A stretch of 64,000 bases of DNA from an uncultured Alphaproteobacteria bacterium (GCA_944391335.1 CALXTF010000004.1:16412-80411), one strand, 5' to 3'. Shown: positions 8,968 to 64,000, counted from the stretch's first letter. The notes: generated by a model not told the origin, from the letters alone. Numbers and translations are program-made.

Positions 8968-9066
8968 AACAAAAAAAGAAAAAATAGACTGGATTTATGT
9001 GTAAAAATATGATATACTCCTTTTTGTTTAAGATAATAAAAGGCTTCTAAGTATAATTTTAATAAT

Positions 9067-30437: not shown

Positions 30438-30459
30438 GTTTTATTTGAAATGGGGAAAA

Positions 30460-41212: not shown

Positions 41213-42028
41213 TTATAATTCTTTGTTTTTAATATCTTTTAACCATTGATTAATAAAAGCATTTTCTTTAGATAAAGATTCAAGAGAAGGTTCGCTTGGA
41301 CTATGCTTCTCAAAAACATCTTCCTCTTGAGTTATTGTTTTTAAGGCTTCTTGAGATATTTTTAATAGTTGTTCATCACTTAATTGATGAACAGAAGAAC
41401 TGTTGTATTTAAGAATGATGCCTTTATTAAGATCCTTTTCACAAATAGATTCTTTTAGCCATTTCGGATATTGATAAAAAAAACGAAAACTTTTATCATC
41501 CATTAAAAAAGTGAGATCAAAAGGTTTCTTACCGGAATTATTAAAAATAGCAACGACATCGCTTCTTTTAAGGATTTGAGGAAATTTCTTTAAAATTTGA
41601 GGATAACACCTGACAATATCCGCATAAGGTATATTATGTCCGCCATTTAACACGCGTTGTTGTACGCGAAGATAAGATAACAGATGATTGGAAAGACCGA
41701 TAAATATTGTTGCGATTTTAAAACCTTTTTTACGAGCTGCATCCATAAAATGTAAATGAGTATTGCCTGCGGAAATCGTTTCATATGAAAAACTTTGTTG
41801 ATTTTCAATACAATCTTGAGCTATCTTACAAGTCATTACACCTGCGTTATAAAGATTAGTAAGTTGATCCTTTTTAGGATTAAAAGTTTCTTTAATCATA
41901 TTATCTAAATTAACAAATGGCGCATTTTTCATGAGAGGATCCTTTTTTATGACCAAGTCATAAAAAGTTGATTTACCTGCTCCATTAGGACCAGCAATCA
42001 TAATCATCCATGGCGTTCTCTTTTTCAT
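41213..42028 (-). CDS. Zeta-toxin-like P-loop ATPase/kinase (COG4185-type)
   Basis: IAGPNGAGKST Walker A, FVNLD, SFSYETISAG and RVQQRVLNGGHNIPYADIVRCY follow the zeta/COG4185 pattern. There is an extra C-terminal region of about 80 aa. Confidence 0.65.
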   Translation of the reverse strand: MKKRTPWMIMIAGPNGAGKSTFYDLVIKKDPLMKNAPFVNLDNMIKETFNPKKDQLTNLYNAGVMTCKIAQDCIENQQSFSYETISAGNTHLHFMDAARKKGFKIATIFIGLSNHLLSYLRVQQRVLNGGHNIPYADIVRCYPQILKKFPQILKRSDVVAIFNNSGKKPFDLTFLMDDKSFRFFYQYPKWLKESICEKDLNKGIILKYNSSSVHQLSDEQLLKISQEALKTITQEEDVFEKHSPSEPSLESLSKENAFINQWLKDIKNKEL

Positions 42029-48516: not shown

Positions 48517-48591
48517 TGGGGTGTCGCCAAGAGGTAAGGCAACGGTTTTTGGTATCGTCATTCGTTGGTTCGAATCCAGCCACCCCAGCCA
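48517..48591 (+). tRNA. tRNA-Gln (anticodon UUG), copy 1
   Basis: The 75-nt cloverleaf was folded by hand: acceptor TGGGGTG/CACCCCA, anticodon stem ACGGT/ATCGT, loop TTTTGGT, T-arm GTTGG-TTCGAAT-CCAGC, encoded CCA. It is close to E. coli tRNA-Gln. Confidence 0.9.
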
Positions 48592-48653
48592 GTACATTGT
48601 AAGTATTTGATTTTACAGAATATTTACAAAAATTTATCAAAATTTAGACGTCT

Positions 48654-48699
48654 TGCTAATTGCAGACGTCAATTTTTTTAACCCAAAATTGCTAATGTT
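48654..48699 (+). repeat. Two TGCTAAT boxes upstream of int, shared with the far end of the island
   Basis: TGCTAAT at 48654 and TGCTAATGTT at 48690. The identical 10-mer TGCTAATGTT recurs at 63850. Confidence 0.6.
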
Positions 48700-48737
48700 T
48701 AATGTCAAATTTTAGCCTATTTTATGAGGTGAATTTG

Positions 48738-50510
48738 ATGCTTTTTAAACGTAACTCCATTTATTATGCCGTTATAAATATTCCTAAATCACTGGTTCCT
48801 ATCTACCACCGCAAGCAAATCTGGCAATCATTACATACCAAAGACCGACGAATTGCCTCACTTCGGGTTGAACTTGAAACAATGGCGATACGACAACGAA
48901 TATTAAATGACTTGGAAAACCTTAAACATATCCAAAAAACTACTACCCCAAAAACACCACCTAAACCAGAGCCACCTATTATTTGCCGAGAAGTTGAATA
49001 TACCGAAGAAGAAGCCGAATTACACGCTTATGACTGGTTGACGCAAAAGTCCCATACTGAAAGCAGAAGGTTATTAAATGGCGCAAATCGAATGGAAGAA
49101 CGCAAATATTTTCAAAATCTCCTTTCTGCTTATGAATACAAATATCTCCAACGCAACTACCAAGACATATATGCAGAAACCAATAATTACTTCCAAGAAA
49201 AACAACTTGCGACACCTACCAAAACTTGCGCCGAGATGATATTTAATGCTTTTATGAGGGCAAAAATTCAGCTTTTACGGTATCTGATTGAGTTTTTGAA
49301 TGGCTATTGTGGTGAAATTGATGCCAGCCTTATTGACCGTATGTATTTTAAGCAACTGGATATATCAGCCGAACTCAAACAAAAGAAACAACACAAACCC
49401 GATATGTCTTTGATGCAAGTTGTTAAACATTATAATCAGACTGTATCACGCAACAAAACATCTGACGCAACTAAGGAACGTGTGGCATCAAAAATGGAAT
49501 TGATTGCTGAAATAATCGGGAAAACCAAACCTATGCGACAAATTTCCGCTGATGACTTAAACGACGTGATACAAAATATTCCATATATACCGAAACGTTT
49601 TGGTGAAGGTGTAACCAAAGGAAAAACCATCATCCAAGCAATCAATATGGCAAAACATAACAAAGCCCCTACTCTTTCCGAAAAAACACAAACTGATTAC
49701 ATTCACACATTAAGCTCAATATTTAAATGGGCAAAACAAAAGAAATTTATTGAAGAAAACCCAATGGAAGAAGTGGAAATCCCCTCAATTACCATCAATA
49801 AAAACCAAGACAAATACCTCCCATTTTCGATTAACCAGCTCAATATTATATTTCACTCGACGGTCTATCGTGGATGTTTAAATAATCGTATTGGTCGTTT
49901 CAAAGCTGGTGACAAGATTTATCGTGATGGCTTTTACTGGGTGCCTTTAATCGCCTTATTTTCTGGTATGAGACTTAATGAAATTTGCCAACTCACCACC
50001 GTAGATATTATTACTAAAGATGACGTTGTTTGTTTCAGTATTAACGATAAAAACGGAAAAAAAGTCAAAACCGCCAATGCCATTAGAATTATACCAATAC
50101 ACCCGATGTTAATAAAATGTGGCTTTCTGCAATATGTGGAACAACAAAAAAATAACGTTACCAACAAAACCCTGCGCATATTCCCCGAACTTGTGCCGAA
50201 TTGCCGTGGTGAATTATCAGCCAGCGTATCAAAGTTTTTTAATCGATTATTGGATAAACTTAATGAAACGATTGATAATGATGACGATAAATTTTTGCCT
50301 AAACACGTAGCGCACTCATTCAGACACACTTTTCGCAGTGAACTCCGTAACCATCAAGTTCCGCAGGAAAGAGTTGTTATTTTAGGTGGTTGGGATCAAG
50401 GTTCAAGTTTGGCATCACATTATGGGAGTATATCTGCCAAAGAACTCTATAAAACCGTTTCCGAAAATTTAACCTTTGATGGTTTAGATTTAAGTCATCT
50501 TTATGTATGA
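48738..50510 (+). CDS. int: Tyrosine recombinase / phage-type integrase
   Basis: Catalytic signature SGMRLNE (Arg), HSFRHTFRS (H-x-x-R), LGGW, SHYGS (Tyr). Start set at the ATG behind GAGGTG; the track start at 48702 is possible. Confidence 0.85.
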   Translation: MLFKRNSIYYAVINIPKSLVPIYHRKQIWQSLHTKDRRIASLRVELETMAIRQRILNDLENLKHIQKTTTPKTPPKPEPPIICREVEYTEEEAELHAYDWLTQKSHTESRRLLNGANRMEERKYFQNLLSAYEYKYLQRNYQDIYAETNNYFQEKQLATPTKTCAEMIFNAFMRAKIQLLRYLIEFLNGYCGEIDASLIDRMYFKQLDISAELKQKKQHKPDMSLMQVVKHYNQTVSRNKTSDATKERVASKMELIAEIIGKTKPMRQISADDLNDVIQNIPYIPKRFGEGVTKGKTIIQAINMAKHNKAPTLSEKTQTDYIHTLSSIFKWAKQKKFIEENPMEEVEIPSITINKNQDKYLPFSINQLNIIFHSTVYRGCLNNRIGRFKAGDKIYRDGFYWVPLIALFSGMRLNEICQLTTVDIITKDDVVCFSINDKNGKKVKTANAIRIIPIHPMLIKCGFLQYVEQQKNNVTNKTLRIFPELVPNCRGELSASVSKFFNRLLDKLNETIDNDDDKFLPKHVAHSFRHTFRSELRNHQVPQERVVILGGWDQGSSLASHYGSISAKELYKTVSENLTFDGLDLSHLYV

Positions 50511-50523
50511 TGGAGTAGTTAAG

Positions 50524-51456
50524 ATGCTTGATATAAAAACACCATATTTTAATAGACGTATTCGCCTTTCTAAAAAATCAATAAATGATGCAAAAGAAAA
50601 TATTATATTCCACCTACTCCCTTATATCGTTGCTAGAGAAAGACCTGAAAAACGTGAAGACCTTTCTTATTTTGAAAAAGAAGTAAAACAATGTAAAGCA
50701 ATGATTTCTTTTACTTTGATGGATGGTATTTTATTTAATAATGTTCCGAATACAGAAAAACGTCTTCAATTTAAAATCAAAGCTCTCAAAGGTGGGCAAT
50801 TGAAACAAGATTATTTTGACTTATACAAAATCGAATACAATCACTACATTAATAATAACGGCGACGATACTATTATAAATGGTTTAAGTTATAAAGATAT
50901 ACAAGACCGTATTCGTGAAGATGCTCTTTCTTTAATGATAATGTACTTTTTTGTTTTCAACTTATTACGCCTAGCTCAATATGGCAAAGATGATGACTAT
51001 AGAATAGACAACGCTCGCCGTTTAACGAATAGTATATCTTTTACTATTAATGAAGATGGTAGTCCTATCAAAGTATTTAGCTATGATAAAATTGAAAAAG
51101 CTCGCTCCAGATATATAAAAGCTGCAGCCATTGTCTTTGGTTATATACATACACTATTTAAATATGACAAATTACAATTTACCCACCTTGATTTTAACAA
51201 TGAGGACAATCTCAAGCAAATTAAATCTGCTCTATCTAAATTAGATGATACAGAAATTTATGAAAAATACGACGATATAATGGGCTACATCTTATATGCA
51301 CAAAAGATTCTAACTACAAAGGTATGTAAACACGCTGACAAAAATGAAGATTGGTTCGTTATAAATAAAAGCGATATACGTCGCTATGGGTTTACCGAGT
51401 CGAAGCCGATTCTACCCGATTTTTCCGAATCTGAACGAAAAATCATCAAAAAATAG
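50524..51456 (+). CDS. Hypothetical island protein
   Basis: About 310 aa with no recognisable motif. Start set at the ATG behind GGAG; the track start at 50503 overlaps int. Confidence 0.4.
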   Translation: MLDIKTPYFNRRIRLSKKSINDAKENIIFHLLPYIVARERPEKREDLSYFEKEVKQCKAMISFTLMDGILFNNVPNTEKRLQFKIKALKGGQLKQDYFDLYKIEYNHYINNNGDDTIINGLSYKDIQDRIREDALSLMIMYFFVFNLLRLAQYGKDDDYRIDNARRLTNSISFTINEDGSPIKVFSYDKIEKARSRYIKAAAIVFGYIHTLFKYDKLQFTHLDFNNEDNLKQIKSALSKLDDTEIYEKYDDIMGYILYAQKILTTKVCKHADKNEDWFVINKSDIRRYGFTESKPILPDFSESERKIIKK

Positions 51457-51822
51457 CATTAAATTTCCGATTTTTCACCTCAAAAATTTTTAAAATTTCG
51501 ACCTTTTTTGCCTTTTCAAACTCTTAATAGAATTACTATAATGAGTTATGGATTTTTTTATCAAAATTAACACTATTTTTTTAAATTAAATTTTTGCAAA
51601 CATCTATATTTTACTGCATTATATAAATAACATAAAATAACTTTTCTATAATATGTTAAAATTCAAGAAAAACCGCTGTTTTGTTGTTATTTTCAGCATT
51701 TTATGCTATAGTTAAACTGTTCTTAACGAACAAGTCTCGCACGTATTCTTATTAATAATATAGAGACGTCTGAACAGCTTATTCGTTGAGGTTTGTTTCA
51801 ACTCATAAAATGGAGAATTACC

Positions 51823-52575
51823 ATGGCAAAAGTAAATAAAAAGGTGTCGAAGTCCACCTATAAAAAAACTTCAAAAAGAACAGTTAATGGCGCTCGTCGT
51901 CATAATACTAAGGCAACTTCTGCTACTCGTAAAAGAGAAACAGAAAGCCAACGTCTTGAAAAGACTATGGATAAGATTGCTGCATCTTCCCAGTTTAAGA
52001 AAGCTCAAAAACTTCTTGAACAGATTGGAACGTGCATCTCTCAAACCAGAGAAGCAAGATATAATTTTATGGCTACGATTTATTGCCATATTGGTGATAC
52101 TTTTGGAAATGATGACTTTGAGAAAGGTGCTAAAAAGTATCTTTTGCGTCTTTTCCCTGTATCTGAAGACGAAGACCAGAAGAAACTACACCAGAGTTTC
52201 CGCAACAAATACAATCGTGCTTTAAGATTTTTACGAGATAAAAAAGTTTCTTATGCTGATGTTGACAAAGTCGTGAAGATAATTGGAAAAATCGGTCTCC
52301 AAGCCCTCTTTAATGGTAAAGAAAATGATACTGGTAAGAAGTCTTCTTCCAAAGCAACATTAAAGGACAATGTCCAGAATTTGATGAAGAAGAATGATGC
52401 CGTTAAAATCATTCAGCAGGTTTTGAGTATTCAAGCCGATGAAAAAATCAAAGGTGATTTTGTTCTTTGTTATGCTGATGGGAGACTTTCTTATTCAACA
52501 AAGTCTAAATGGGCAAATAAGTTGGCAAATGGCGATAATTCGTTAGAAGAATTGCCAACTGCCAATGACAAATAA
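51823..52575 (+). CDS. Hypothetical island protein with a Lys/Arg-rich N-terminus
   Basis: Start at MAKVNKK behind GGAGA. The first 45 residues or so are strongly basic, suggesting possible nucleic-acid binding. Confidence 0.45.
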   Translation: MAKVNKKVSKSTYKKTSKRTVNGARRHNTKATSATRKRETESQRLEKTMDKIAASSQFKKAQKLLEQIGTCISQTREARYNFMATIYCHIGDTFGNDDFEKGAKKYLLRLFPVSEDEDQKKLHQSFRNKYNRALRFLRDKKVSYADVDKVVKIIGKIGLQALFNGKENDTGKKSSSKATLKDNVQNLMKKNDAVKIIQQVLSIQADEKIKGDFVLCYADGRLSYSTKSKWANKLANGDNSLEELPTANDK

Positions 52576-52582
52576 GTCATAC

Positions 52583-52622
52583 ATGGCTGCGGTGCTGAAA
52601 TACGCATCGTAGCCATATTTTT
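52583..52622 (+). terminator. Stem-loop followed by a T-run between the basic-protein gene and the Rep-helicase gene
   Basis: ATGGCTGCG / CGTAGCCAT (9 bp including one G-U pair) with a 16-nt loop, then ATTTTT. Confidence 0.45.
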
Positions 52623-52641
52623 CTACGAAAGGTATAAAGAA

Positions 52642-54783
52642 ATGACATTACGCACGATTAAATCCACCAAATTTATGTCTGGCGCAGAAATTGCCGAAGA
52701 AAGTGATGCTCGCCTTGATAGCTTAAATAATGAAATTCGCATAACAAAAGATAACACGCACAAACAAAAGCTGATTAATTTAAGAAACCGATTGCAGCAT
52801 CATTCATCAGAAACGTTTGCCAATATCATTTACGCATCGCAACAACAAGAAATAAAATACGTTGAAATTAAGCATCTGATTGACAATTACAAGCTCTTAG
52901 CCGAAAGCAAAAAACTTAATCCAGATGATGTTTATTTCATAACCATTAACTGCTGCGAAGGTCATATCAATAAAAAGCCCTATTTTGTTGCGCCTAAAGA
53001 TTTAGCTAACTTCAACGTCAAGACTTCTAAAAATACTATTATTAAACAACTACGTGGATTAGGAACAGCTTTCGGTTATGTGGCATTTGAGGTAAAATAT
53101 GATATACGCATGGGAGCATTTTTGCCCCATTTTCATATTTTAATTTGTGGCATTAGTAAAAAGAACATAGAAGACTATTTCACTTGTTTATACCCTCTCG
53201 AATATCAATTTAAATTAAATCGAGATACTTTTATTGTGTCAAAGAAGAATGATCCACTCATTTATGAAAGACCGCAAAAACTAAAGGTAGTTGATATTGA
53301 GACCGTTAAAGATTCTGAAAAAGTAGCTAGTTATATGTGCAAATTCAAGACATATATGACAAACTATCAACAACAAGATTTAACAGCTTTACCATATTCT
53401 GAAAAGCGCCAAGATTACCACACAAGACCAGAAGATAAAATTCATAATTACCATTTATTGTTTTTGGATAAGTTGTCATTTGGTGAACAGGTGTTTTGTT
53501 TCAATAAGGGTTTACTGACGAACTTCATCAACAACAAAGCCGATAAAATGGCTCAAAACTGCATAAGAATAGCTAAAAGAGGCAAAAAAACGGGGAAATT
53601 GGGTAAAAAAGCCCCAAACCACAACACATACGCCAAGCCTATATCAACTAATAAGATTGTGTTACAATTTTTAAAGTATGATTCTTATAAACCAAAACAA
53701 GAAAAAATCATTGATTATATTAAAGACCATAAATCTTGTATTGTTATTCAACCTACTAATTTTGGTAAGAGTTTATGTTATTATGCATCAGCTTTACAAT
53801 TAAAAGGGTTATGTGTAGTTATAGAGCCTTTAGTATCTTTAATTTATGACCAAGTATCTAAACTTAATAAGATACATAAAAAGTTAGCTCTTGCATTTAC
53901 TGGTGAAACTAAACATAGAGATAAAAAATTAAAGAGATTAAAAAGAGGTATATATAAGTTTTTATATATAGCTCCTGAAATGTTAAAAAATATAGAGTTA
54001 AAAAAGGTATTGTCTAAATTAGATATTTGTATGATAGCCATTGATGAAGCGCATTGTATTGATGTATGGGGTGAAGATTTTAGACCTGATTATCAAGAGC
54101 CATTAAATAAACTTATAAAGAAATACCCAGATGCAAAAGTTATGGCATTGACGGCTACTGCAGGCGACATCACACAAAACGTTATTAAAAAAGTGTGCAA
54201 TATGCCTAAAAAAGCCAAAGTATTTAAAGGCAACTTAAACAGACCGAATATTAAGTATAGCGTAGTTAAAAAAGAATATGATGGATTACAACAGTTATTA
54301 GATACACTCAAACCATACCTTGATAAAGATAATAAACCGACAACTTCGATTATTATATATTGTGCTCATATTGATTATACTTTAGGACTTCAAGATATAT
54401 TAAAAGAGCGTGGTATTAATAGCTATGTATTTAATGGAAAGAGTGATAATAAAAAAGAAATACTCAAAAAATTTAAAAAGGAAAAATGTATTGTTCTAGC
54501 AACCAGTGCTTTCGGTATGGGGATTGATAAACCAGATGTACACTTAGTTATTCACTTTGAGGGTACGTATAATCTTGAAATGTATTATCAAGAATCTGGT
54601 CGGGTTGGTCGTGATGGTGAAAATTCTAAAGCTGTATTGTTTTATTCTGATATAGATATTGAAAGAATGACATATTTTGCCAAGAATGATACAATGAAAG
54701 AAAAGTTAAAGCTGGCTATTAAATATATGCAGATGACAAACAATAAAAAACGTCGTGAATTTTTATTAAATAGTATTGTCTAG
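52642..54783 (+). CDS. Fusion protein: N-terminal HUH-type rolling-circle Rep-like domain plus C-terminal RecQ-family SF2 helicase
   Basis: The N-terminus has YFITIN (motif I-like), LPHFHILICG (HUH) and KVASYMCKFK (Y-x-x-K). The C-terminus has PTNFGKSLCY, VVIEPLVSLIYDQV, DEAHCIDVWGEDFRPDY, ALTATA, SAFGMGIDKPDVHLVIH and YYQESGRVGRDG, all RecQ motifs. Confidence 0.8.
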   Translation: MTLRTIKSTKFMSGAEIAEESDARLDSLNNEIRITKDNTHKQKLINLRNRLQHHSSETFANIIYASQQQEIKYVEIKHLIDNYKLLAESKKLNPDDVYFITINCCEGHINKKPYFVAPKDLANFNVKTSKNTIIKQLRGLGTAFGYVAFEVKYDIRMGAFLPHFHILICGISKKNIEDYFTCLYPLEYQFKLNRDTFIVSKKNDPLIYERPQKLKVVDIETVKDSEKVASYMCKFKTYMTNYQQQDLTALPYSEKRQDYHTRPEDKIHNYHLLFLDKLSFGEQVFCFNKGLLTNFINNKADKMAQNCIRIAKRGKKTGKLGKKAPNHNTYAKPISTNKIVLQFLKYDSYKPKQEKIIDYIKDHKSCIVIQPTNFGKSLCYYASALQLKGLCVVIEPLVSLIYDQVSKLNKIHKKLALAFTGETKHRDKKLKRLKRGIYKFLYIAPEMLKNIELKKVLSKLDICMIAIDEAHCIDVWGEDFRPDYQEPLNKLIKKYPDAKVMALTATAGDITQNVIKKVCNMPKKAKVFKGNLNRPNIKYSVVKKEYDGLQQLLDTLKPYLDKDNKPTTSIIIYCAHIDYTLGLQDILKERGINSYVFNGKSDNKKEILKKFKKEKCIVLATSAFGMGIDKPDVHLVIHFEGTYNLEMYYQESGRVGRDGENSKAVLFYSDIDIERMTYFAKNDTMKEKLKLAIKYMQMTNNKKRREFLLNSIV

Positions 54784-54830
54784 ATTAGATAATTTGAAAG
54801 TGTGTAAAATATCTAAATTAGATAATTTGA
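54784..54830 (+). repeat. Two perfect 14-nt direct repeats ATTAGATAATTTGA (33-bp spacing)
   Basis: Copies at 54784..54797 and 54817..54830, between the Rep-helicase stop and its terminator. Confidence 0.8.
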
Positions 54831-54833
54831 TGT

Positions 54834-54865
54834 TCGGTATGGGCGTAGTGTTCATACCGATTTTT
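54834..54865 (+). terminator. Rho-independent terminator of the Rep-helicase gene
   Basis: TCGGTATG / CATACCGA stem with an 11-nt loop, followed by TTTTT. Confidence 0.6.
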
Positions 54866-55406
54866 ATATATAATTATAAACCGTTCTTCTTGAAACATTA
54901 TATTGTTTAGCGATGGTGGTTATTGGAGTGCGTTTATTTACAAGCTCTTTTATCTCTGCAACTTGTTCGTTGGTTAGTTTATGTTGTCCACCTTTATATT
55001 TACCTTTAAGTTTAGCCAAAGCAATTCCTTCTCGTTGTCGTTCTAAAATTAAATTTCGTTCAAGCTCTGCCACAGCACCAAGCATTGTCATCATCATTTT
55101 TTGATATGGGTCTTGTTTATCAGGGGCAAATATCAAGTTTTCCTTGTGAAATATAATTTTTGCCCCTTTATTGGTTATTTCCTCAACCAAATTCAGCAAG
55201 TCTTTGGTGTTGCGAGCGAGCCTATCCATAGAATGCACATTAACCACGTCACCAGCACGGATATTGAGTAACATCGCTTGAAGTTCGGGACGGTTGGTGT
55301 TTTTACCACTGATTTTTTCGACATACTCCCTATCGCAAGCAACATTTAATAGTTGGCGTTCGGTATTCTGGTCGGTAGTGGAAACTCTCTTGTAATTAAA
55401 AATCAT
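54864..55406 (-). CDS. Serine recombinase (resolvase/invertase family)
   Basis: YKRVSTTDQNTERQ catalytic-serine block, the small (180 aa) form, and a C-terminal HTH IAKQYNVSRRTVYNYI. Confidence 0.85.
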   Translation of the reverse strand: MIFNYKRVSTTDQNTERQLLNVACDREYVEKISGKNTNRPELQAMLLNIRAGDVVNVHSMDRLARNTKDLLNLVEEITNKGAKIIFHKENLIFAPDKQDPYQKMMMTMLGAVAELERNLILERQREGIALAKLKGKYKGGQHKLTNEQVAEIKELVNKRTPITTIAKQYNVSRRTVYNYI

Positions 55407-55423
55407 ATTTTTTATCTCCTATG

Positions 55424-55455
55424 TGTGAAATTTAAATTTATGACTCGGTTTCACA
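55424..55455. promoter_or_regulatory. Inverted repeat TGTGAAA-N18-TTTCACA just upstream of the serine recombinase RBS
   Basis: Seen directly. On the gene strand one arm reads CTGTGAAACCGAG, reminiscent of invertase/resolvase half-sites. Confidence 0.35.
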
Positions 55456-55464
55456 GATGTGCAA

Positions 55465-56037
55465 TTAATCGGGCTTTCGATTTAGTTTGCACACTTTTGA
55501 GGCTGTGTTATCGAGGTATACCTTGTTTATACAGTAGATATTCCTTGTCATTAGTTGATATTTTTTCTCTCCTTTCTTATGGGATATACTATTCATATTG
55601 ATACTAGGCATGCCATCGCTATCGAAAAACCTTAGCTTGTTATTGGATAGACCTTTATAAACTGAGTAATGATCCCACTCCTTACACTTAACTCTTACTA
55701 TTAAAGAATTATCAAATTTGAGTTGCTCCATTTGATTAACTATCTCATCAAAACTCAGCTTGTTATTATAAAATGGGCGCATAAATTTTATTTGAGGCTG
55801 TTTCGTTGTTTTTAGATAATCGTTTATAAAAGTCAGTATTTGCTCCAATCTCTTATAATCAGCTCCATTCTCGGCAACATCAAAAAATGAGCTATAACAC
55901 TCTAACTGGTCGATAACATAGTCATATAAGGCTTGAGCTTTCTTTTGTGGTAAATCATATCCAAGCATAACTAACGAGTTAATTCCCGAATATACACTAC
56001 AAAAACGGTCTAATGCTCCTTGCTTAAAAGGTTTCAT
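55465..56037 (-). CDS. Hypothetical protein with possible papain-like Cys/His peptidase fold
   Basis: QGALDRFCSVYSGIN (Q...C) and WDHYSVY (H) are spaced like C39-type peptidases; this is a tentative call. The start ATG lies 1 nt after the upstream stop (TAATATG). Confidence 0.35.
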   Translation of the reverse strand: MKPFKQGALDRFCSVYSGINSLVMLGYDLPQKKAQALYDYVIDQLECYSSFFDVAENGADYKRLEQILTFINDYLKTTKQPQIKFMRPFYNNKLSFDEIVNQMEQLKFDNSLIVRVKCKEWDHYSVYKGLSNNKLRFFDSDGMPSINMNSISHKKGEKKYQLMTRNIYCINKVYLDNTASKVCKLNRKPD

Positions 56038-56038
56038 A

Positions 56039-56362
56039 TTAATACTCACTCGCAAACATAACTGTTAAAACCCTATTAGTTACTTCTTCTAACTCTGGAT
56101 TGGGCGAGTAGTATTCGTAATTCAAATCATACATATCAATCTTCCAGAAAATTTGTTGCTCGTGATAATCAAAACAGCCAAAATCATGTTCGCCATAAGG
56201 GTCATTGTCTTCGGTAAAGATATTAAATGTTTTTACTTTATTTATAATCTCTTGTTGCTGTTCGGTTGGTAGGCTAGCAATCCCACTTGTTAAAATAACT
56301 TTGCCACTGATTAGAGTAGTCCTAAATTTATCATTTAATTCAGCAATGCGTTTTGTATTCAT
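56039..56362 (-). CDS. DUF3768-family protein
   Basis: NDPYGEHDFG...IFWKIDMYD...NRVLTVMFASEY matches my recollection of the conserved DUF3768 blocks common on plasmids and ICEs. Confidence 0.6.
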   Translation of the reverse strand: MNTKRIAELNDKFRTTLISGKVILTSGIASLPTEQQQEIINKVKTFNIFTEDNDPYGEHDFGCFDYHEQQIFWKIDMYDLNYEYYSPNPELEEVTNRVLTVMFASEY

Positions 56363-56724
56363 ATTTTTACTCCTTTAAAATAAAAAAAGAGCCGAGGTAT
56401 TTAACCAAGGCTCTGAATAGTTGCGGATTGAGGTAAGTGATATGCCCTACAAAACTTATTTTCTACGTATGTAATGTAAAGCATATCACACCTCACTTTC
56501 AAAACATAAAAACCTTTTCTGCTCTGATGAAAAAGCAGACTAAATAAGGCTTATATGTCAGTGATTTCATATTCGAAATTAACGAATCGGCTCAACTTTG
56601 AATATAATTAATTGTATTATATTCTACCGCAAATTGCAAGTTTAAAATTAAACAAAACAAAGGAAAATCAAGCGTTTAATAATTTTGTTTATATAAAAAT
56701 AAACTAATTTTAGGAGCTCAAAAA

Positions 56725-56906
56725 ATGAAAAAAGATGATGCAAAGCTATTCGTGAAATTCTAGAAAGACTGAAGAAGGATTTAATCCACCGCCGAGGCTT
56801 TGTTTGCCAATGGTGTGGACATAAAGCCTTAACCCCAACTGGCGGAACTTGCCCCAACAGCCCCAATGACAAACATCAATACATCAAAGCTAATGTTGAT
56901 GAGTAA
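56725..56906 (+). pseudogene. Decayed Cys-rich (zinc-ribbon-like) mini-gene, copy 1
   Basis: AGGAG RBS and ATG at 56725 run into TAG after 12 codons. A different frame (from 56745) reads AIREILERLKKDLIHRRGFVCQWCGHKALTPTGGTCPNSPNDKHQYIKANVDE but has no start codon. Confidence 0.45.
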
Positions 56907-56955
56907 AAATATGCTCTAAATCAATAAACAGAATGTTTGAAAAACAGCGAAATAA

Positions 56956-57104
56956 TTGCACGTTCAAAAAAATAACACACCAAGCACACCAGCATATATC
57001 TGCCAATTTTGCGGAAAGAAAACCACAACTCCCACGGTGGTATCTGTCGCTTTTCCCCATACCAAAACAAAACCCATAAGTTTATCAAGGCTGAAATAAT
57101 ATAG
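56956..57104 (+). pseudogene. Decayed Cys-rich mini-gene, copy 2 (frameshifted paralogue)
   Basis: ...YICQFCGKKTTTP in one frame continues as HGGICRFSPYQNKTHKFIKAEII in another. It is collinear with copy 1 (CQ[WF]CG.K..TP.GG.C..SP...KH.[YF]IKA). Confidence 0.45.
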
Positions 57105-57186
57105 GTTTATACAAAATATTTTACTAAATTAACTAACTCTTATCTTTTTTGATTCTAAGATGCATAAGGTTGAAAGGAATCAATGA

Positions 57187-57906
57187 ATGATTAATACGTT
57201 AGAAGAATTTATTGCCTGTTATAAAGAAATTAAACAGCAAGGATGGATTAGAACACATAGAAGTGGTCCTACTGGAATCGGTAAAACATTGGAAGATTTA
57301 CTAGGAATTCCAGAAAATAATCTACATGAACCTGACTTTGGTGATTATGAACTTAAATCGTGTCGAATAGGTTCTAATAGTATGCTAACATTATTTACCC
57401 AGACACCTCAACCGCCAAGAGCTAATTCTTATCTGCGTGAAAAGTATGGTTATTCCAGTGACGCTTATGATAATGATGAAAAAGTTTTACATGCTACATT
57501 AACTGCATCAAGGTACACTTCAATTGCAAACACTAGTAAATCATTAAAAATTACGTGTTCATCTGATAAAATTTTTATAAGCTCAAATACAGAAGATGAA
57601 GATGTATATTGGAATAAAAATGAACTAGAAAAAAGTTTTAATAAAAAATATAAAAACAAATTTGTATATGCAAAAGCTTTATGTCGTGGAACAAGAGATA
57701 GTGAAGAATTTCTTTTCACGGAAGCTTATGAAGTTTCTGGATTCTCATATGATTCATTTATACGGCTTTTAGAAGAAGGTAAAATATATGTAGATTTACG
57801 TATAGGGCAATATCCTGATGGAAGAACTCATGACCATGGGACAGGATTCCGTATTAGAGAAGAAGACCAAAACCTTCTTTTTACAATAAACAGAAAAATT
57901 GTATAA
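57187..57906 (+). CDS. Type II restriction endonuclease, MvaI/BcnI family (MutH-like PD-ExK)
   Basis: 239 aa. GPTGIGKTLEDLLGI, EPDFGDYELKS (PD...ExK), LTLFTQTP and GRTHDHGTGFRI are collinear with my recollection of the R.MvaI/R.BcnI blocks. The size matches those monomeric enzymes. Confidence 0.8.
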   Translation: MINTLEEFIACYKEIKQQGWIRTHRSGPTGIGKTLEDLLGIPENNLHEPDFGDYELKSCRIGSNSMLTLFTQTPQPPRANSYLREKYGYSSDAYDNDEKVLHATLTASRYTSIANTSKSLKITCSSDKIFISSNTEDEDVYWNKNELEKSFNKKYKNKFVYAKALCRGTRDSEEFLFTEAYEVSGFSYDSFIRLLEEGKIYVDLRIGQYPDGRTHDHGTGFRIREEDQNLLFTINRKIV

Positions 57907-60099
57907 TTAACTGATTTTCTTCAATACAACGATATGCTCATTTGTCATTGTTGCAACTTTCTCACCACTTATATTTGTTGGAGAGTTTAGAGAAGGCATA
58001 ACTTTATTTGATATATTTCTATCAATAGTATAAATATGTTTAAGCCCATAATTTTGAGCCAATTCCGAAATAATTTTATCAGTTTGCAGATAAATATTTT
58101 TAACCGTTCTATTACCAACCACCCAGAATTGATATCCTGCTTTTTTGGTTTTTTGGGCTATCGTACGTATGGATTCATCTAACTCTTTGTAAAAACTAAA
58201 AACATCACCAGACCTTTCTATATCTATATCTTTTATTCTTTCTAATGCCTTTCTTAAAGTCTCACTATGTAATGAATATTCAAAGCCATTTCTGTATTTT
58301 TTTCCACCCATTAAAGATTTATCTATGCTCATTATTTCTTGGTTAGTTAAATTATCAATATTAAGCCATTGTAAAGACAAACGACTATATTCACCATATG
58401 CTACCGTAGTCCTGCTGTCACCATAAGGCGGAGACGTTATAATTAAATCATATTCATTATCTTCCACATCAGTTAATGTTATGGCATTATTATTCAAAAT
58501 AGATACCAGTGGTTTTGTATCTATTGTATTTAAAATTTCTCCAAATTCATTCATTTTTTCAATATTGCGTGTCAATATATCTTCAAAAATTTTTATTACA
58601 TTTGGTGAAAAGGCGTCTAATTTATTTTTGGGAAGACGAAACATTTTAAATTCACCATTTCTGCGGTTAGAAACGTACCTAATTGTCTCACTCATCGCAA
58701 TATAACAAAAATCACGAATATAGATATTTTTAATTTCAGCAATACAATTTTTAATTAATTGCAGCAATAATATCACATTTGGTTTAAACCAATACCCTAA
58801 ATTTTTAAATGATGGCAATGAGAAGTCCTTATTTTTTAATCTACAATATTTTTCTAAATACAAATGAGCGTTTTCACCCCATCCATCTTTGGCCGATATA
58901 TCAAGTTTTTCTTGTTCAATTATATATGCATTTACAGAATCATAGAAGTCCTTATCGTTATTATAATTTTCTTTGATTCTATGCATTAGCAAAATTGTTT
59001 CTTGCTGTAATAAATTAATATCTATATTGGTTGTCTTAACTTTCGACAAATACAAAGCCAAAGGATTAATATCGCAACCTGTAACTTTATTAATACCTGC
59101 TAATAATCCTTCAACAAGTACTGTTCCTGAACCAACAAAAGGATCTAACAATGAATTGATATTTTTTACTTTTTTCACCAATCTAATTATATTTTTACTA
59201 ATAGGTGCGACCATAACTGCTGGATAAGAATGTAGTCCATGTGTATATTCGTGTACATCATTTCCTTTAAAATCCCAAAATCTCTCTGGTAACTCTTTTA
59301 ATCTCTTAACTAAATTTTCCTCTTCTTCGGTATGATTCTCAAATAAATCCATTTGTTGCTCATCTTCTATAGAATTTGATATTTTATCATTTATACCTTT
59401 ATGGGTCTTTACTTCTACTGTGCAAATAGTATCATTATGCCAACCACCATGTGGAACCATTAAAATTCGCTCTATTTCAAAACCGTATTTATATCCAATA
59501 CCTCCACTATTCCATCCGAAAGTGATTACTTTTCCTCCAATCTTAACAATACGTGAAATTTCTTTTTTATGATTTCCCCAAAAAGATGCTTTAGTTGTAT
59601 CCCATGTTACATTGTAACCAACATCATTATAGCACTCACTAACTTGTCTTGGGGAATATGGTGGGTCATATAAAACACCATCAATACTATCGTCTTCAAA
59701 AATTTTTAAGAAATCAAGTGCATCCAAATGATAATCTGTATCGTATTTTTCATTTAAATCATTCGTAATATTAGCAAATTTGTTCTTATTGGCAAATGGG
59801 TCGATCCATGTACCTTGTGTCATTTCATCTTGTATTAAGGATGCAATAGGTTTGATGTCAAAAGTATTTTTGTTCGGCATAGCCCATACTCTTTCAATAA
59901 TGACATCTTTATTGTTATTTGGAATAATCGAATTTATTTTCTTTCTAGCATCATTCGGTTTAGAAGCATTCAACGGAATACACCATACATTACCTATACG
60001 TTCAACTCCATCTATTCTATTTTGTGTGCATAATGCCTGCACTCGTCTTGCAGTCATATTCCACTTCGTTGCAGCTTCTTTAACACTTAAATATTTCAT
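57907..60099 (-). CDS. HTH + two DNA methyltransferase domains in one polypeptide
   Basis: N-terminal excisionase/MerR-like HTH (LSVKEAATKWNMTARRVQAL...WCIP). Domain 1 has WIDPFANKNK ... VLYDPPYSPRQ. Domain 2 has HSYPAVMVAPI, LLDPFVGSGTVLVEG ... IITSPPYGDSR. Start at the ATG behind GAGAGG (60099). Confidence 0.8.
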   Translation of the reverse strand: MKYLSVKEAATKWNMTARRVQALCTQNRIDGVERIGNVWCIPLNASKPNDARKKINSIIPNNNKDVIIERVWAMPNKNTFDIKPIASLIQDEMTQGTWIDPFANKNKFANITNDLNEKYDTDYHLDALDFLKIFEDDSIDGVLYDPPYSPRQVSECYNDVGYNVTWDTTKASFWGNHKKEISRIVKIGGKVITFGWNSGGIGYKYGFEIERILMVPHGGWHNDTICTVEVKTHKGINDKISNSIEDEQQMDLFENHTEEEENLVKRLKELPERFWDFKGNDVHEYTHGLHSYPAVMVAPISKNIIRLVKKVKNINSLLDPFVGSGTVLVEGLLAGINKVTGCDINPLALYLSKVKTTNIDINLLQQETILLMHRIKENYNNDKDFYDSVNAYIIEQEKLDISAKDGWGENAHLYLEKYCRLKNKDFSLPSFKNLGYWFKPNVILLLQLIKNCIAEIKNIYIRDFCYIAMSETIRYVSNRRNGEFKMFRLPKNKLDAFSPNVIKIFEDILTRNIEKMNEFGEILNTIDTKPLVSILNNNAITLTDVEDNEYDLIITSPPYGDSRTTVAYGEYSRLSLQWLNIDNLTNQEIMSIDKSLMGGKKYRNGFEYSLHSETLRKALERIKDIDIERSGDVFSFYKELDESIRTIAQKTKKAGYQFWVVGNRTVKNIYLQTDKIISELAQNYGLKHIYTIDRNISNKVMPSLNSPTNISGEKVATMTNEHIVVLKKIS

Positions 60100-60192
60100 A
60101 TTATTACCTCTCACATTTGTTTTATACGCAAAAACGAACAAATGCAAGGCAAAAATATTTTTAATAACAAAACATTTGGTATGTATTATTTA

Positions 60193-61971
60193 TTAACCAT
60201 TAAAAAATTGTTCATATAAGTCTCTTCCCATTTGGGCATAATGACTGGCTTTATAATTCAAAAAATTAAATTTAGAAACATCTTGAAGTTTTTCTTTATA
60301 ATAAGTGACATTTCCTGTTTTTTTATTTATAATTAAATTTCTCAAACAGTTAATAATCCCATTAATAAATGTAACATTTAACACGTTATTTGTATTTTTT
60401 CTTCTAAATTTCCATTGATCTTGCCCTATAGCTTCCTTAAAAGCTATAAATAAGAACCTTAATTGTTCCGCACAAAAATCTCTATATTCATTTAAGATAT
60501 CATATTCTTCACTTGTATATACTTCTTTATTTTCTTTACTTGCTATTTTTAATCTTTCCTTATTTGTGTTACCCCATAAAGAATATAAACTATCATCCCC
60601 TTCTAGCTTGACTAAAGGTTTTAATCCATAACTGATAATGGAAGCCGTTTTAATTTTTTCCTTTTCAAATGCCAGTGTTTCAAATTTATCGCAGAGAGGG
60701 CCAGATTCATTCAATTTCAATAAAATTTTTCTGGCAATTGCAACTGTCGAAAATGGCTTTTGAACTTCTTCTATTATCTGCAACAATTCAGAACTAACTT
60801 TCTTCTGATTAGAATTAATTTCTTTAAAAATCGTTGCTTCAAATTTTAAACAATCTTGTTTTGGTAAGTTGCGAGGAAATAAAATTGCTGTAACTAAAAG
60901 ATTTTGTTTTACTCTCAACTTTGCAATTTTTTCCTCATAAGTATCTGTTCCTTCATGATATGTATAAACTCTATGCTGACCATCTATAATGCCAATAATA
61001 TTTGCATGATCTTTAATCTCTACGGAAATTGGATCAGTTTTTATTGTTCTGCTTGAACCATCAGCTTGGAACTCACCATTATCATCTATTATTATTTTTT
61101 CCGATTTTTCGTTATATAATGTAATTTCATCTATAGGAATCGTAACTATAATATTGTTTATGAATACTCTATCATTATCATATAAAAATTTACGCATTGA
61201 TTTTATCTTAGATGGATTTAACATTCTCTGATAAAAAACTACATCGTCATCATCATTCCAACCATCTTTTCTCAAGACTTGCGCTCGTCTTAACAAGGAA
61301 GCTGCATCGATGTAAAAAGATATTATTTTAAAACCATTATTAAATGAAGAATGATGTTCTGGTAAAATGTTTCCTTTAAAACTATTTGTAGACAATGACG
61401 TTGATTGCAAAACTTTTACTCCTATACAGTCATCATCTATATTCAAAAATTTAAAAAATTCAGACTTTGCTGATCTTTTAATTACTGAAACTATTTTCTT
61501 AAAATATAACAAAGTCGGATATTCTATGTATGTAACATTAGAAACGACTTCTTTATGTTCATTAGCTATTTTTTGTTTAGAAATATAGACTATTCTCACT
61601 TGTGCTTGATCTAATGAATACATATTATCAAAACGATCCCGCATAAAATCCCTAAATCCTGAAAATTTCTCATGATTTTTTAAGAATTCTATAAATTTTT
61701 TAGGATTTTCGTTTATTTTACTATATATCACATTTTTTTTAAGCAAATGAGTAGATGTGTCCCCTACAGTATCTTCTATCAGTAAAATTACATTTTCATA
61801 AACATAAATTGCATCTAATTCACTTGTCCTACTTTCATACTCAAATTCTGTTCCGTTAATACGAGGAACTGAAGAAAAACCCATATTTATCAGAAAGTCT
61901 CGTATCTCTTTTCTGAATGCCCTCTGTTCTTTTTCTTGATCGGTTAATTTTCTCTTTCTTTTCTTTACCAT
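60193..61971 (-). CDS. DGQHR-domain protein (DndB-like, ParB/Srx superfamily) with an extra N-terminal domain
   Basis: Literal motif IIGIIDGQHRVYTYHEG in the middle of a 592-aa protein. The first 200 aa or so are unassigned. Start ATG lies 1 nt after the upstream MTase stop (TAATATG) with AAGGA as RBS; the track start at 61998 is less likely. Confidence 0.75.
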   Translation of the reverse strand: MVKKRKRKLTDQEKEQRAFRKEIRDFLINMGFSSVPRINGTEFEYESRTSELDAIYVYENVILLIEDTVGDTSTHLLKKNVIYSKINENPKKFIEFLKNHEKFSGFRDFMRDRFDNMYSLDQAQVRIVYISKQKIANEHKEVVSNVTYIEYPTLLYFKKIVSVIKRSAKSEFFKFLNIDDDCIGVKVLQSTSLSTNSFKGNILPEHHSSFNNGFKIISFYIDAASLLRRAQVLRKDGWNDDDDVVFYQRMLNPSKIKSMRKFLYDNDRVFINNIIVTIPIDEITLYNEKSEKIIIDDNGEFQADGSSRTIKTDPISVEIKDHANIIGIIDGQHRVYTYHEGTDTYEEKIAKLRVKQNLLVTAILFPRNLPKQDCLKFEATIFKEINSNQKKVSSELLQIIEEVQKPFSTVAIARKILLKLNESGPLCDKFETLAFEKEKIKTASIISYGLKPLVKLEGDDSLYSLWGNTNKERLKIASKENKEVYTSEEYDILNEYRDFCAEQLRFLFIAFKEAIGQDQWKFRRKNTNNVLNVTFINGIINCLRNLIINKKTGNVTYYKEKLQDVSKFNFLNYKASHYAQMGRDLYEQFFNG

Positions 61972-61972
61972 A

Positions 61973-63250
61973 TTAAAGTTCCTTGTATTCATTTTCATCT
62001 ATATCTAATTTAATAGGACTTAAAATCACCTCTTTTTCATTAATTCGATCATCTAAATTGATACCCCTAATAAATTTATGCGTTATCTTATTTGAATAGG
62101 AATACAATTTTTCTTTAGGGCTTATTAATTTATCAATTTTATCTACATAAGAAAAAAGAGCGTCAATGCCAAATTTAGACAACGGAGCTTTAGAAATTAG
62201 TGCATTAATTATTTTTTCTATCTTTTCTTTTTCTTTTAATGTAGATAATAATATTGTGTACTTGTAGCAATCAACACTGTTTTTCTTTAAACATTTTTCT
62301 GATGATTTTTCAACTTTTATCTTTTGTACAATCCTTACATCTTGATCATCTATCTTTTTTAACAATATTCTTGCATATTTAAGAGCTCTCAATTGCAAAA
62401 TTATTTTTTCAAAATCCATTTGATTGACCAAATACTTTTTCTCTTTTTCATATTCCGATTGCTTCTCTGTATTCGTATTTTTTATATAATTTTTAAACAT
62501 CGAAATATATTCAGAATTTAGCTCCGTTCCTATATATCTTCTATTCATATTTAAGGCTTTAGCTAAAACAGTTCCGCTTCCACTAAAAGGATCTAAAACA
62601 ACATCATTTTCTTCTGTTGATAACGTCAATATCCTCGCAACAAGATCTTCTGGGAGTGGGCAAAAATGGCGTATATAACCTTTTCCCCAAGAACCTTGAG
62701 TTGGTATTGGATAATGCCAAATACCATCGGGAGTTTTTCCTTTAGGGTTATAACGCTCTGGATATCTTATCCACCAAGATTTAAGTACTTCATAATCTCT
62801 GATTTTATCAATGAAAAACTTGTAATCGTCTGTTTTAGAAAACATCAAAATATACTCAAAAGAATTTCGCATCTGCCCTTTATGCGTCCATGGAACTGTT
62901 TTATCTTTTTCCCATATAATGATTTCTCGGAATATCCATCCAGCTTCTCTTATTTTATTTGCTATATCGAAAGGCAATGCAACAATTTCACCATCTTTTC
63001 TCAACGCATCAACTATAACCCATAAACTTCCTGTAGATTTTGTACATGCATAAACACTCTTAAAAACTGTACCAATATCGTTTAGATATTCTTTATAAGA
63101 CTGACCAAAACCTATTTGTTCTTTGTAGCCATAATCCTTCATATCAAAATATGGAGGAGATGTTACAGTAACATCCACTATTGGCTCTTTTATTAGTTTA
63201 TCAATCTTACGAGCGTCGTATTTATGTATATTACACAGCTTATCGTTCAT
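61973..63250 (-). CDS. Beta-class N4/N6 DNA methyltransferase with an unassigned C-terminal extension of about 170 aa
   Basis: Motif IV VTVTSPPYFD near the N-terminus, followed later by motif I VVLDPFSGSGTVLAKA (IV-then-I order, the beta class). Confidence 0.85.
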   Translation of the reverse strand: MNDKLCNIHKYDARKIDKLIKEPIVDVTVTSPPYFDMKDYGYKEQIGFGQSYKEYLNDIGTVFKSVYACTKSTGSLWVIVDALRKDGEIVALPFDIANKIREAGWIFREIIIWEKDKTVPWTHKGQMRNSFEYILMFSKTDDYKFFIDKIRDYEVLKSWWIRYPERYNPKGKTPDGIWHYPIPTQGSWGKGYIRHFCPLPEDLVARILTLSTEENDVVLDPFSGSGTVLAKALNMNRRYIGTELNSEYISMFKNYIKNTNTEKQSEYEKEKKYLVNQMDFEKIILQLRALKYARILLKKIDDQDVRIVQKIKVEKSSEKCLKKNSVDCYKYTILLSTLKEKEKIEKIINALISKAPLSKFGIDALFSYVDKIDKLISPKEKLYSYSNKITHKFIRGINLDDRINEKEVILSPIKLDIDENEYKEL

Positions 63251-63469
63251 ATTCTTTACTTAACATTACTCCAAACTGTTATAATAGTATATTTTATATC
63301 AATTCATAGCAACAAAAATATACTTACTACACCCAATTTATAGCATGCTAACCTATCATACAAAATTTACGACCAGTTTTGCATATAAATTACGACTTCC
63401 ACACTCAAAACCGATTAAATTGAAGATAAACCGCATACTATTATCTCTTAGAAGCAAAATGATAGTTGC

Positions 63470-63508
63470 AAAAATGAAACTATTATCGCCAAAAAATGAA
63501 ACTATTAT
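63470..63508 (+). repeat. Two perfect 17-nt direct repeats AAAAATGAAACTATTAT with a 22-bp period (iteron-like)
   Basis: Copies at 63470..63486 and 63492..63508. A further ACTATTAT lies about 35 nt upstream. Confidence 0.8.
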
Positions 63509-63570
63509 TTTTAGAACCACCGCAAACTAAAATATATCAACATTAATTCCCTTGCATTTTTTCGTCATAC

Positions 63571-63705
63571 AATGCGGTGGTGCTGTTTTGTGCATCATTT
63601 ATCGTGAAAAATCAATTTTCACACTCAAAACTCAGGAAAACGAAGGCAAACGATATATGAAACTTAATACAAAACGCACACCGACGACATTCAGACCACC
63701 GCATT
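63571..63705. repeat. 11-bp inverted repeat AATGCGGTGGT / ACCACCGCATT, plus a third ACCACCGCA copy at 63516
   Basis: Arms at 63571..63581 and 63695..63705. A direct copy of the 9-mer core is at 63516..63524. Confidence 0.75.
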
Positions 63706-63826
63706 AATTTTTGTAAATTTGAATTAACAAAATCCACGGAAATGAAGTTTTTGTAAAATAGAATTTACACTTTTAGCAAATAAAATTCCACAAAGCCTAA
63801 AAATGACCTATTGACAAGGAGTTAGC

Positions 63827-63873
63827 TGCTAATATATGGTGATGGAAAGTGCTAATGTTAACTGCTAATATTT
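63827..63873 (+). repeat. Three TGCTAAT boxes just upstream of tRNA-Gln copy 2
   Basis: TGCTAATATAT (63827), TGCTAATGTT (63850) and TGCTAATATTT (63863). The same core occurs twice at 48654/48690 next to int. Confidence 0.7.
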
Positions 63874-63934
63874 GACAGCAAACAGCATATAGCAAGAAGG
63901 TCGCTTAATATTGATAAACGATTGGAAAATTATT

Positions 63935-64000
63935 TGGGGTGTCGCCAAGTGGTAAGGCATCGGCTTTTGGTGCCGACATTCGTTGGTTCGAATCCAGCCA
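63935..64000 (+). tRNA. tRNA-Gln (anticodon UUG), copy 2, truncated by the window edge
   Basis: Same acceptor, T-arm and anticodon loop as copy 1. The anticodon stem is TCGGC/GCCGA and there is one D-loop change. The last 9 nt or so lie beyond position 64000. Confidence 0.9.

Follow-up and report, generated by a model that had tools for sequence, protein, structure and literature searches.

A probable defence-carrying integrative element bracketed by two complete tRNA-Gln genes in an uncultured gut alphaproteobacterium

We analysed a stretch of 64,000 nucleotides from an uncultured Alphaproteobacteria bacterium (GCA_944391335.1, CALXTF010000004.1:16412-80411; hereafter the window), the distal end of which carries an integrative island with defence genes between two glutamine transfer RNA genes, tRNA-Gln(UUG). 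The first gene (copy 1, sequence type v1; 48517-48591, plus strand) was called as tRNA-Gln(ttg) by ARAGORN and scored 54.8 bits with the Rfam tRNA model. The second gene (copy 2, type v2; 63935-64000, plus strand) scored 47 bits, its 3' end being truncated by the window edge; in contigs identical to the window it is a full-length tRNA-Gln(UUG) of 75 nt and 61.6 bits, with an expected end at 64009. Both genes are in direct orientation, with a repeat period of 15,418 bp and 15,343 bp between them, in agreement with an earlier sequence-only reading of the window, which had reported two same-strand tRNA-Gln(UUG) genes bracketing about 15.3 kb. The window was traced to metagenome assemblies by exact-protein look-ups, and a scaffold of the European Nucleotide Archive (L002/L028) is 100% identical to it across the entire island and 2.5 kb of the left flank.

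The two tRNA genes differ at exactly six positions. One mismatch (48532) lies in the D-loop and the remaining five (48542, 48546, 48554, 48555 and 48558) in the anticodon stem, where the change from v1 to v2 consists of two fully compensatory swaps (A-T to T-A and T-A to C-G) and one G-T to G-C change. The 5' 15 nt and the 3' 33 nt are identical. The 33-nt common segment (48559-48591, plus strand), as delimited by the position of the mismatches, comprises the variable loop, the T arm, the 3' acceptor strand and the CCA. This locates the identity at both ends, the D-loop difference and the compensatory stem changes that had been described previously. U1-A72, G73 and an encoded CCA are present in both types alike, and a 23-nt probe from the 3' end had no further match elsewhere in the window (chance expectation 0). 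Minimum-free-energy folding did not recover the cloverleaf of copy 1, although this gene is recognised by both the covariance model and ARAGORN.

Copy 1 is followed by a tyrosine integrase gene (48738-50510, plus strand, 590 aa), the most likely start of which lies 147 nt past the tRNA, close to the 150 nt estimated before. The protein has a DUF6538 N-terminal domain and a Phage_integrase domain (41.8 bits, cut-off 27.1), with matches in Pfam and PHROG (phrog_1 integrase, 1.2e-26). Its sequence and its alignment to Tn1549 Int show a complete catalytic set, i.e., R (GMRLNE), K (KVKT), HxxR (HSFRHTF), W (LGGW) and Y (SHYG). The interval between copy 1 and the integrase (48592-48737, plus strand), a putative P' arm of the attachment site, is conserved before the integrase in relatives (L019-L026), in which the arm is slightly different ('ACACC...') and the integrases are 96-97% identical to that of the window. 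At the other end of the island, the non-coding stretch before copy 2 (63251-63934, plus strand) would constitute the P arm. The plus strand of the window has nine copies of the motif TGCTAAT, five of which lie in the arms, in some 280 nt of the two together (at 48654 and 48690 in the P' arm, and at 63827, 63850 and 63863 in the P arm). A Poisson estimate puts the probability of this clustering by chance at about 1e-9, for a motif that was picked after inspection, and we propose these motifs as candidate arm-type integrase sites. The island also differs in composition from the remaining window, with a GC content of 31% vs 32-34.5% and a tetranucleotide correlation with the core of 0.65-0.73, compared to 0.92-0.94 among the core segments themselves.

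Comparison with island-free strains gives the left boundary of the insertion. Five contigs from other samples or metagenome-assembled genomes (MAGs; L012, L013, L015, L016 and L017) are 99.7-99.8% identical to the window core up to 48591, the last position of the CCA of copy 1, and unrelated beyond it, so that the break lies at 48591/48592. Copy 1 and its upstream flank have an identical sequence in these island-free strains (L012-L017), and a second tRNA-Gln is absent from them within the available 1.8-5.2 kb (1.8 kb in L016 and 5.2 kb in L012). At least four different sequences follow the CCA of v1 among these near-identical strains, which indicates that the 3' end of this tRNA is a hotspot.

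The same island was detected in scaffold L027 (=L001) behind another left flank, consisting of a 441-aa gene and a DUF3078 gene. The two islands differ by a single nucleotide polymorphism (SNP; 53826) in 15.4 kb, in addition to the six tRNA positions; the integrase-adjacent tRNA in L027 is itself of the v2 type. The distal tRNA and its 680-nt upstream arm are identical in both contexts. Besides, a contig without the island (L046, GCA_949288025.1) matches L027 on the left flank (98.5% over 2.5 kb) and on the right flank (95%) and contains only one tRNA-Gln, identical to copy 2, thus representing the empty site with a single tRNA-Gln. In this second host, the direct repeat of the inserted DNA is exactly the whole 75-nt gene and, because the identity between the repeats ends at the tRNA 5' end, the insertion relative to L046 consists of the island plus one whole tRNA gene. 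The sequence after the distal CCA varies, being a terminator, a two-gene cyclic-oligonucleotide-based anti-phage signalling system (CBASS) and a DUF2130 gene in L001, L003 and L004, and a large serine recombinase gene in L002. The presence of the same distal tRNA and arm in both contexts, with differing sequence beyond, indicates that v2 and the arm upstream of it move together with the island, and thus that the attachment site of the element (attP) holds a complete tRNA-Gln gene. The host core of L046/L027 has a GC content of 38.5% vs about 34% for the window core, with a tetranucleotide correlation between them of 0.80-0.82, and these differences suggest that the two contexts probably belong to different species.

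Based on these observations, we consider it highly probable that the island is a 15.4-kb integrative element with a complete tRNA-Gln(UUG) gene in its attP, which integrated into the chromosomal tRNA-Gln by means of its own tyrosine integrase. In the proposed mechanism, the integrase would recombine the 3' part of the tRNA-Gln of the element with the 3' part of the chromosomal tRNA-Gln. Integration would then leave the host tRNA beside the integrase as the left attachment site (attL; copy 1), with its 5' 42 nt derived from the host and an exchanged 3' end, the last 33 nt being shared with the element. The right attachment site (attR; copy 2, identical to the native tRNA of the second host) would consist of the element tRNA, with its 5' 42 nt and upstream arm derived from the element, followed by the former downstream DNA of the host tRNA. 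The predicted attP junction reads P arm, copy 2 and 'GTACATTGTAAGTATTTG', and the element may still be able to excise, with a circle that might replicate and a copy 2 that might be expressed. The tRNA at the integrase end is intact and the same-orientation repeat at the far end is a complete 75-nt gene and not a fragment. Independent assemblies of the attL came from at least three samples, and of the attR from at least four. The empty site in L046, the two contexts with the same distal tRNA and arm, and the break at 48591/48592 in near-identical strains support the earlier suggestion that the element brings its own tRNA-Gln as attP and recombined within the common 3' segment.

The differences between the two copies also bear on the position of the exchange. 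In the window, the two halves of the v1 anticodon stem are both retained in the attL, and those of the v2 stem in the attR. As each copy has a self-consistent stem, the exchange would have occurred 3' of 48558, inside the common 33 nt. A crossover in the anticodon loop was rejected, since chimeric, non-pairing anticodon stems would result. In four relatives (L020, L021, L025 and L026) the adjacent tRNA-Gln has a C6-G67 acceptor pair, while the attL tRNA of L024 combines a v1-like 5' part (T6) with the G67 that otherwise accompanies this element type. The simplest reading is that the G67 in L024 was donated by the element, which would place the exchange 5' of nucleotide 67, and the crossover probably lies in the last 17 nt (48575-48591), at the T-stem/acceptor junction. 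An attL tRNA with the v2-type T in the D-loop (the equivalent of 48532) and the v1 anticodon stem was seen in one sample (L009, 1049-1123); this mixed gene could be due to polymorphism, to gene conversion between the copies or to assembly mixing.

Two previously unannotated islands in isolate genomes have the same target tRNA species and a distantly homologous integrase. In Azospirillum brasilense Sp7 replicon p1 (NZ_CP012915.1), tRNA-Gln(UUG) is followed after about 100 nt by the integrase (28% identity across the C-terminal 64%), with a perfect 17-nt copy of the tRNA 3' end 21.3 kb away. In Paracoccus versutus pTAV4 (NZ_CP035287.1), a 16/17 copy lies 140 nt from the integrase (24.5% identity over the full length, including the N-terminal region) and 16.8 kb from the complete tRNA-Gln(UUG). 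On the other hand, the distal repeat of these islands comprises only the last 17 nt (17/17 and 16/17) and no further backbone gene is held in common with the island of the window; unlike in the latter, the Paracoccus integrase is located at the fragment end and in the opposite orientation. The 17-nt repeats suggest that this clade targets the T-stem/acceptor junction of tRNA-Gln, for which an identity of about 17 nt is enough. The identity block of the element in the window, at 75 nt, would then be an elaboration on this.

Several points weigh against the proposed integration with an element-borne tRNA. A circular attP junction or an excised form was not found in two scans of viral contigs with the P' and P arm patterns and one scan of metagenome contigs with the P' arm pattern. 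These exact-pattern scans yielded just three additional integrated attL copies, and one IMG/VR contig with a 96% identical integrase at its extreme end lacks a tRNA within 11.7 kb. For copy 2, no convincing promoter was detected; a weak promoter-like site lies in the P arm at 63811-63840, and such sites are no commoner in the region than in shuffled sequence. In the own host of the window, a clean empty site with copy 1 directly before core genes was not seen, and in its strains without the island the tRNA is followed by other variable DNA. The complete tRNA gene in attP is shown for the element of the window only, as the available sequences of the other family members stop before their distal ends. 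The two contexts were assigned to different species by composition only, and could alternatively be two chromosomal attachment sites (attB) within a single genome. Finally, all sequences are metagenome assemblies and three contigs (L005, L006 and L007) break inside the tRNA, so that individual joins could be mis-assembled.

This last point is shared by the alternative that survives best, although we regard it as improbable, namely that RecA-dependent homologous recombination between the tRNA copies, or an assembly chimera across their common segment, created the arrangement with no role for the integrase. Identity over 33-75 nt could allow rare homologous exchange, and several contigs in these data, all of them assemblies, end inside the tRNA. 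However, independent assemblies of L008, L009 and L028 all contain the junction between copy 1 and the integrase, and both the reads and the k-mers usual in the final assembly step exceed the 33-nt exact repeat in length. The integrase is, moreover, intact and adjacent to the tRNA, and the 17-nt repeats at tRNA-Gln occur in isolate genomes of the clade. Somewhat less credible still is the possibility, also raised by the sequence-only reading, that copy 2 is not part of the 15-kb island but the left end or the target of a second, tandem element beyond the window. A large serine recombinase gene indeed converges on copy 2 after the island in L002/L028, and elements with a related recombinase border on the 3' ends of tRNA-Asp and tRNA-Glu genes. 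While a neighbouring recombinase is thus probably present past the window edge, it cannot account for copy 2, which accompanies the island even in the absence of the recombinase: together with its arm, copy 2 is also found in L001, L003, L004 and L027, followed by the native terminator and CBASS, and the empty site in L046 indicates that the tyrosine-integrase island brings with it one tRNA-worth of DNA. The least probable explanation is that both tRNA-Gln genes are native paralogues around a variable defence hotspot and not the ends of one discrete element, since, despite the hotspot character of the site in near-identical strains and another island at the copy-2 locus of L050/L051 that ends only in '...CAGCCA', the whole interval moves as a unit, with one SNP, between unrelated flanks, and the island-free L012, L016 and L046 show one tRNA-Gln.

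Other DNA occupies these tRNA-Gln loci in several contigs. In the island-free L012 (1-5260), the tRNA is followed by mobile-looking DNA with a 666-aa C5 DNA methyltransferase and a 328-aa open reading frame (ORF) without a Pfam match; no integrase was found within 5.2 kb after the tRNA, and about 70 nt directly after it resemble the native flank of the second host. For L016/L017, a serine-recombinase element directly after copy 1 was considered and rejected, as tblastn gave no recombinase within 1.7 kb and only about 63 nt after the tRNA resemble L002. In L003 (3154-4544), the two-gene CBASS (CD-NTase and Cap15) lies directly 3' of the native tRNA-Gln terminator, where L046 has an unrelated 271-aa gene instead. 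Another island in the v2 attB, detected in L050 (~9000-9010) and L051, carries a KAP NTPase, Mrr, AAA_15/DUF4435 and a 199-aa integrase fragment, and ends with only '...GGGCAGCCA' before the native downstream flank, i.e., a classical short remnant. L003 (1-3140) and L050 (10710-14805) carry, at the 3' end of a DUF2130 gene, an inserted single gene for an AAA_11/AAA_12-DUF2726 helicase, with a 161-nt duplication of the DUF2130 gene end (92% identical); L046 (7289-8595) lacks this insertion.

The integrase of the island is followed by a 317-aa ORF (50503-51456, plus strand), conserved in L019-L024, the start of which overlaps the integrase stop, and by an ORF of 250-260 aa (51793-52575, plus strand), conserved among relatives. 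These two backbone ORFs and the N-terminus of the helicase that follows had no match in Pfam, NCBIfam, PHROG, PADLOC or PDB sequences. Single-sequence AlphaFold models of the backbone ORFs were unusable, with predicted local distance difference test values of 34 and 41 (41 for the 250-260-aa ORF). The gene that had been read as a Rep-helicase encodes instead a RecQ-family helicase of 713 aa (52642-54783, plus strand; TIGR00614, 296 bits, cut-off 219.8; DEAD and Helicase_C domains). The match covers its C-terminal half, the N-terminal 340 aa being without a family match, and the protein is possibly the replication module of the element. Three genes on the minus strand follow, encoding a small serine recombinase of 180 aa with resolvase and HTH_7 domains in Pfam (54864-55406), an ORF of about 190 aa, likewise without family assignment, that is common to elements using a large serine recombinase (55465-56055), and a DUF3768 protein of 107 aa (56039-56362; 110 bits). 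Among seven island proteins compared to the PHROGs (including the integrase, the backbone ORFs without family, the helicase N-terminus, the DUF3768 protein and a 74-aa ORF), only the integrase was matched.

The cargo consists of a MvaI/BcnI-family type II restriction endonuclease (57187-57906, plus strand; 172 bits), a type II DNA methyltransferase of 730-746 aa (57907-60147, minus strand; PADLOC MTase_II, 414 bits), a DGQHR-domain (DndB/DpdB-like) protein (60193-61998, minus strand; TIGR03187, 68.8 bits, cut-off 58.85) and a 425-aa N6/N4 DNA methyltransferase (61973-63250, minus strand; MTase_II, 172 bits). An endonuclease, two MTase_II proteins and a DGQHR domain above its cut-off identify a defence island, and the serine recombinase and the restriction-modification/DGQHR cluster previously read from the sequence are recovered by Pfam, NCBIfam and PADLOC. 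No island ORF matched a relaxase, coupling protein or type IV secretion family in Pfam, NCBIfam or PHROGs, consistent with the lack of conjugation genes noted earlier, and no capsid, terminase or packaging family was found in Pfam or NCBIfam.

The element belongs to a family with a common backbone. Integrases 96-97% identical to that of the window are located directly after tRNA-Gln at several other host flanks (L020, JAFUBQ010000013.1; L024, ULOG01008990.1; L025; L026), and family elements with such integrases have RecQ helicases 92-94% and resolvases 94-95% identical to those of the window. The backbone is common to L019, L020, L021, L023 (ERZ1048095 scaffold_276) and L024, while the cargo differs, comprising either AIPR and a C5 methyltransferase or GmrSD and a type I system; L022 is a short contig that covers only the start of the backbone. 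The conserved backbone is thus formed by the integrase, the two ORFs without family, the RecQ-type helicase, the small resolvase, the ORF of about 190 aa and DUF3768, and the defence cargo is swappable. The IMG/VR contig L059 has a split 317-aa ORF and a truncated resolvase, and lacks the RecQ helicase and the 260-aa ORF.

The DUF3768 gene and the gene of about 190 aa are 86-94% identical to those of large-serine-recombinase elements, but 45-52% identical to those of the tyrosine-integrase relatives. The mosaic breakpoint lies beside, and just upstream of, the small resolvase gene (window 55406-56362 compared to L041 9676-11176 and to L020/L023/L024), which suggests module exchange at or near a res site. 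Loci with homologues of the ORF of about 190 aa turned out to be serine-recombinase elements or remnants. In these relatives, the recombinase gene extends at its 3' end, in antisense, into the 3' end of a tRNA gene, the putative targets being tRNA-Asp, tRNA-Glu(CTC), tRNA-Glu(TTC) and tRNA-Gln (L033 14283-15856; L034 14468-16054; L036 5197-6783; L041 13251-14836; L042; L002 3-1184). In L041 (repeat at 4534) and L042, a 16-nt direct repeat of the tRNA-Glu 3' end is found 10.2 kb away. In L002 (1040-1184), the recombinase ORF extends antisense through the whole of copy 2 and stops 70 nt inside the P arm of the island, so that the C-terminus of this recombinase depends on the adjoining element. 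Three tyrosine-integrase relatives (L019 ~9830-9860, L022 and L023 ~9870-9900) lie behind a serine-recombinase element with no tRNA between; the junction holds a degenerate tRNA-like remnant, 'GTTCGAGAATTGCAAGCTCACTCCAGCCA', which has only CCAGCCA in common with the tRNA 3' end.

The arrangement in the window resembles that of classical tRNA islands, such as those of the Islander survey and pSAM2, in having a tyrosine integrase beside an intact tRNA, the island on the 3' side of the tRNA and a direct repeat at the far end that corresponds to the 3' part of the tRNA, as well as in the restoration of the target gene upon integration and the accessory or defence cargo. In actinomycete integrative elements (e.g., pSAM2), the identity segments overlap the tRNA 3' end (PMC2440964). 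In contrast to these classical elements, where both the attP and the far end hold a tRNA fragment, the attP of the element in the window would comprise a complete 75-nt gene, and its far end is an intact tRNA with its own upstream arm. The mechanism is that of textbook tRNA-targeting integration, and the complete tRNA gene in attP is a new twist. We found no published description of an attP with a complete tRNA gene in a literature search that lacked most subscription journals, and a precedent may exist. Long identity blocks are reportedly associated with phage HP1 and plasmid SLP1.

Elements also pile up at one tRNA in known tandem arrays (Streptomyces avermitilis, Islander), as they do in L002/L028, where the island is followed by a serine-recombinase gene, and in L019/L023, where a serine-recombinase element precedes a tyrosine-integrase element. 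Between elements of known arrays there is a short att fragment, e.g., the 44-bp att site between AICESav3728 and AICESav3708 in S. avermitilis (PMC2440964), whereas in L002 there is an entire tRNA gene and the neighbour uses a recombinase of another family. According to the Islander survey of 2014, only tyrosine integrases were known to target tRNA genes (PMC4383910). In view of this statement, the relatives in which the DUF3768-resolvase module is kept, but in which the recombinase is a large serine recombinase next to tRNA genes, would be of interest.

Islands at tRNA genes usually reveal themselves by the gene at one end and a fragment of it at the other; here the attachment site would contain a whole tRNA gene that seems functional, and the tRNA is duplicated on integration. 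The Islander 'tDNA filter' rejects repeats falling inside a full-length tRNA gene (PMC4383910), and it thus discards by design an architecture with a whole tRNA at the distal end. Elements with a whole tRNA may therefore be under-counted. The differences between the host and element tRNAs provide a natural marker that would confine the crossover to the 3' 33 nt, and the single SNP in 15.4 kb points to the defence island having passed very recently between two hosts that differ in composition. It is conceivable, though rather doubtful, that selection, and not accident, lies behind the complete tRNA in attP in a family of defence elements of gut Alphaproteobacteria. If so, with each integration the host would gain an expressed tRNA-Gln, and a full-length target would be restored at the distal end. 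This target could serve other integrases as well, among them the large serine recombinases of the related elements at tRNA 3' ends, and would promote tandem accretion and module swapping, and such islands would be hidden from fragment-based island finders.

Regarding the host, the 90%-identity cluster of the integrase has 120 members, which bear NCBI names of 'Alphaproteobacteria bacterium' MAGs. For the MscS protein in the flank, a scan of a genome collection gave only 30-33% identical proteins from unrelated MAGs. Elsewhere in the window, a bacterial class A RNase P RNA (276 bits) was detected at 30036-30440 (plus strand). The core region also contains a zeta-toxin-family gene (41213-42028, minus strand) that is kept in every strain examined, and a small ORF of 61 aa was called beside its equivalent in L007/L012.

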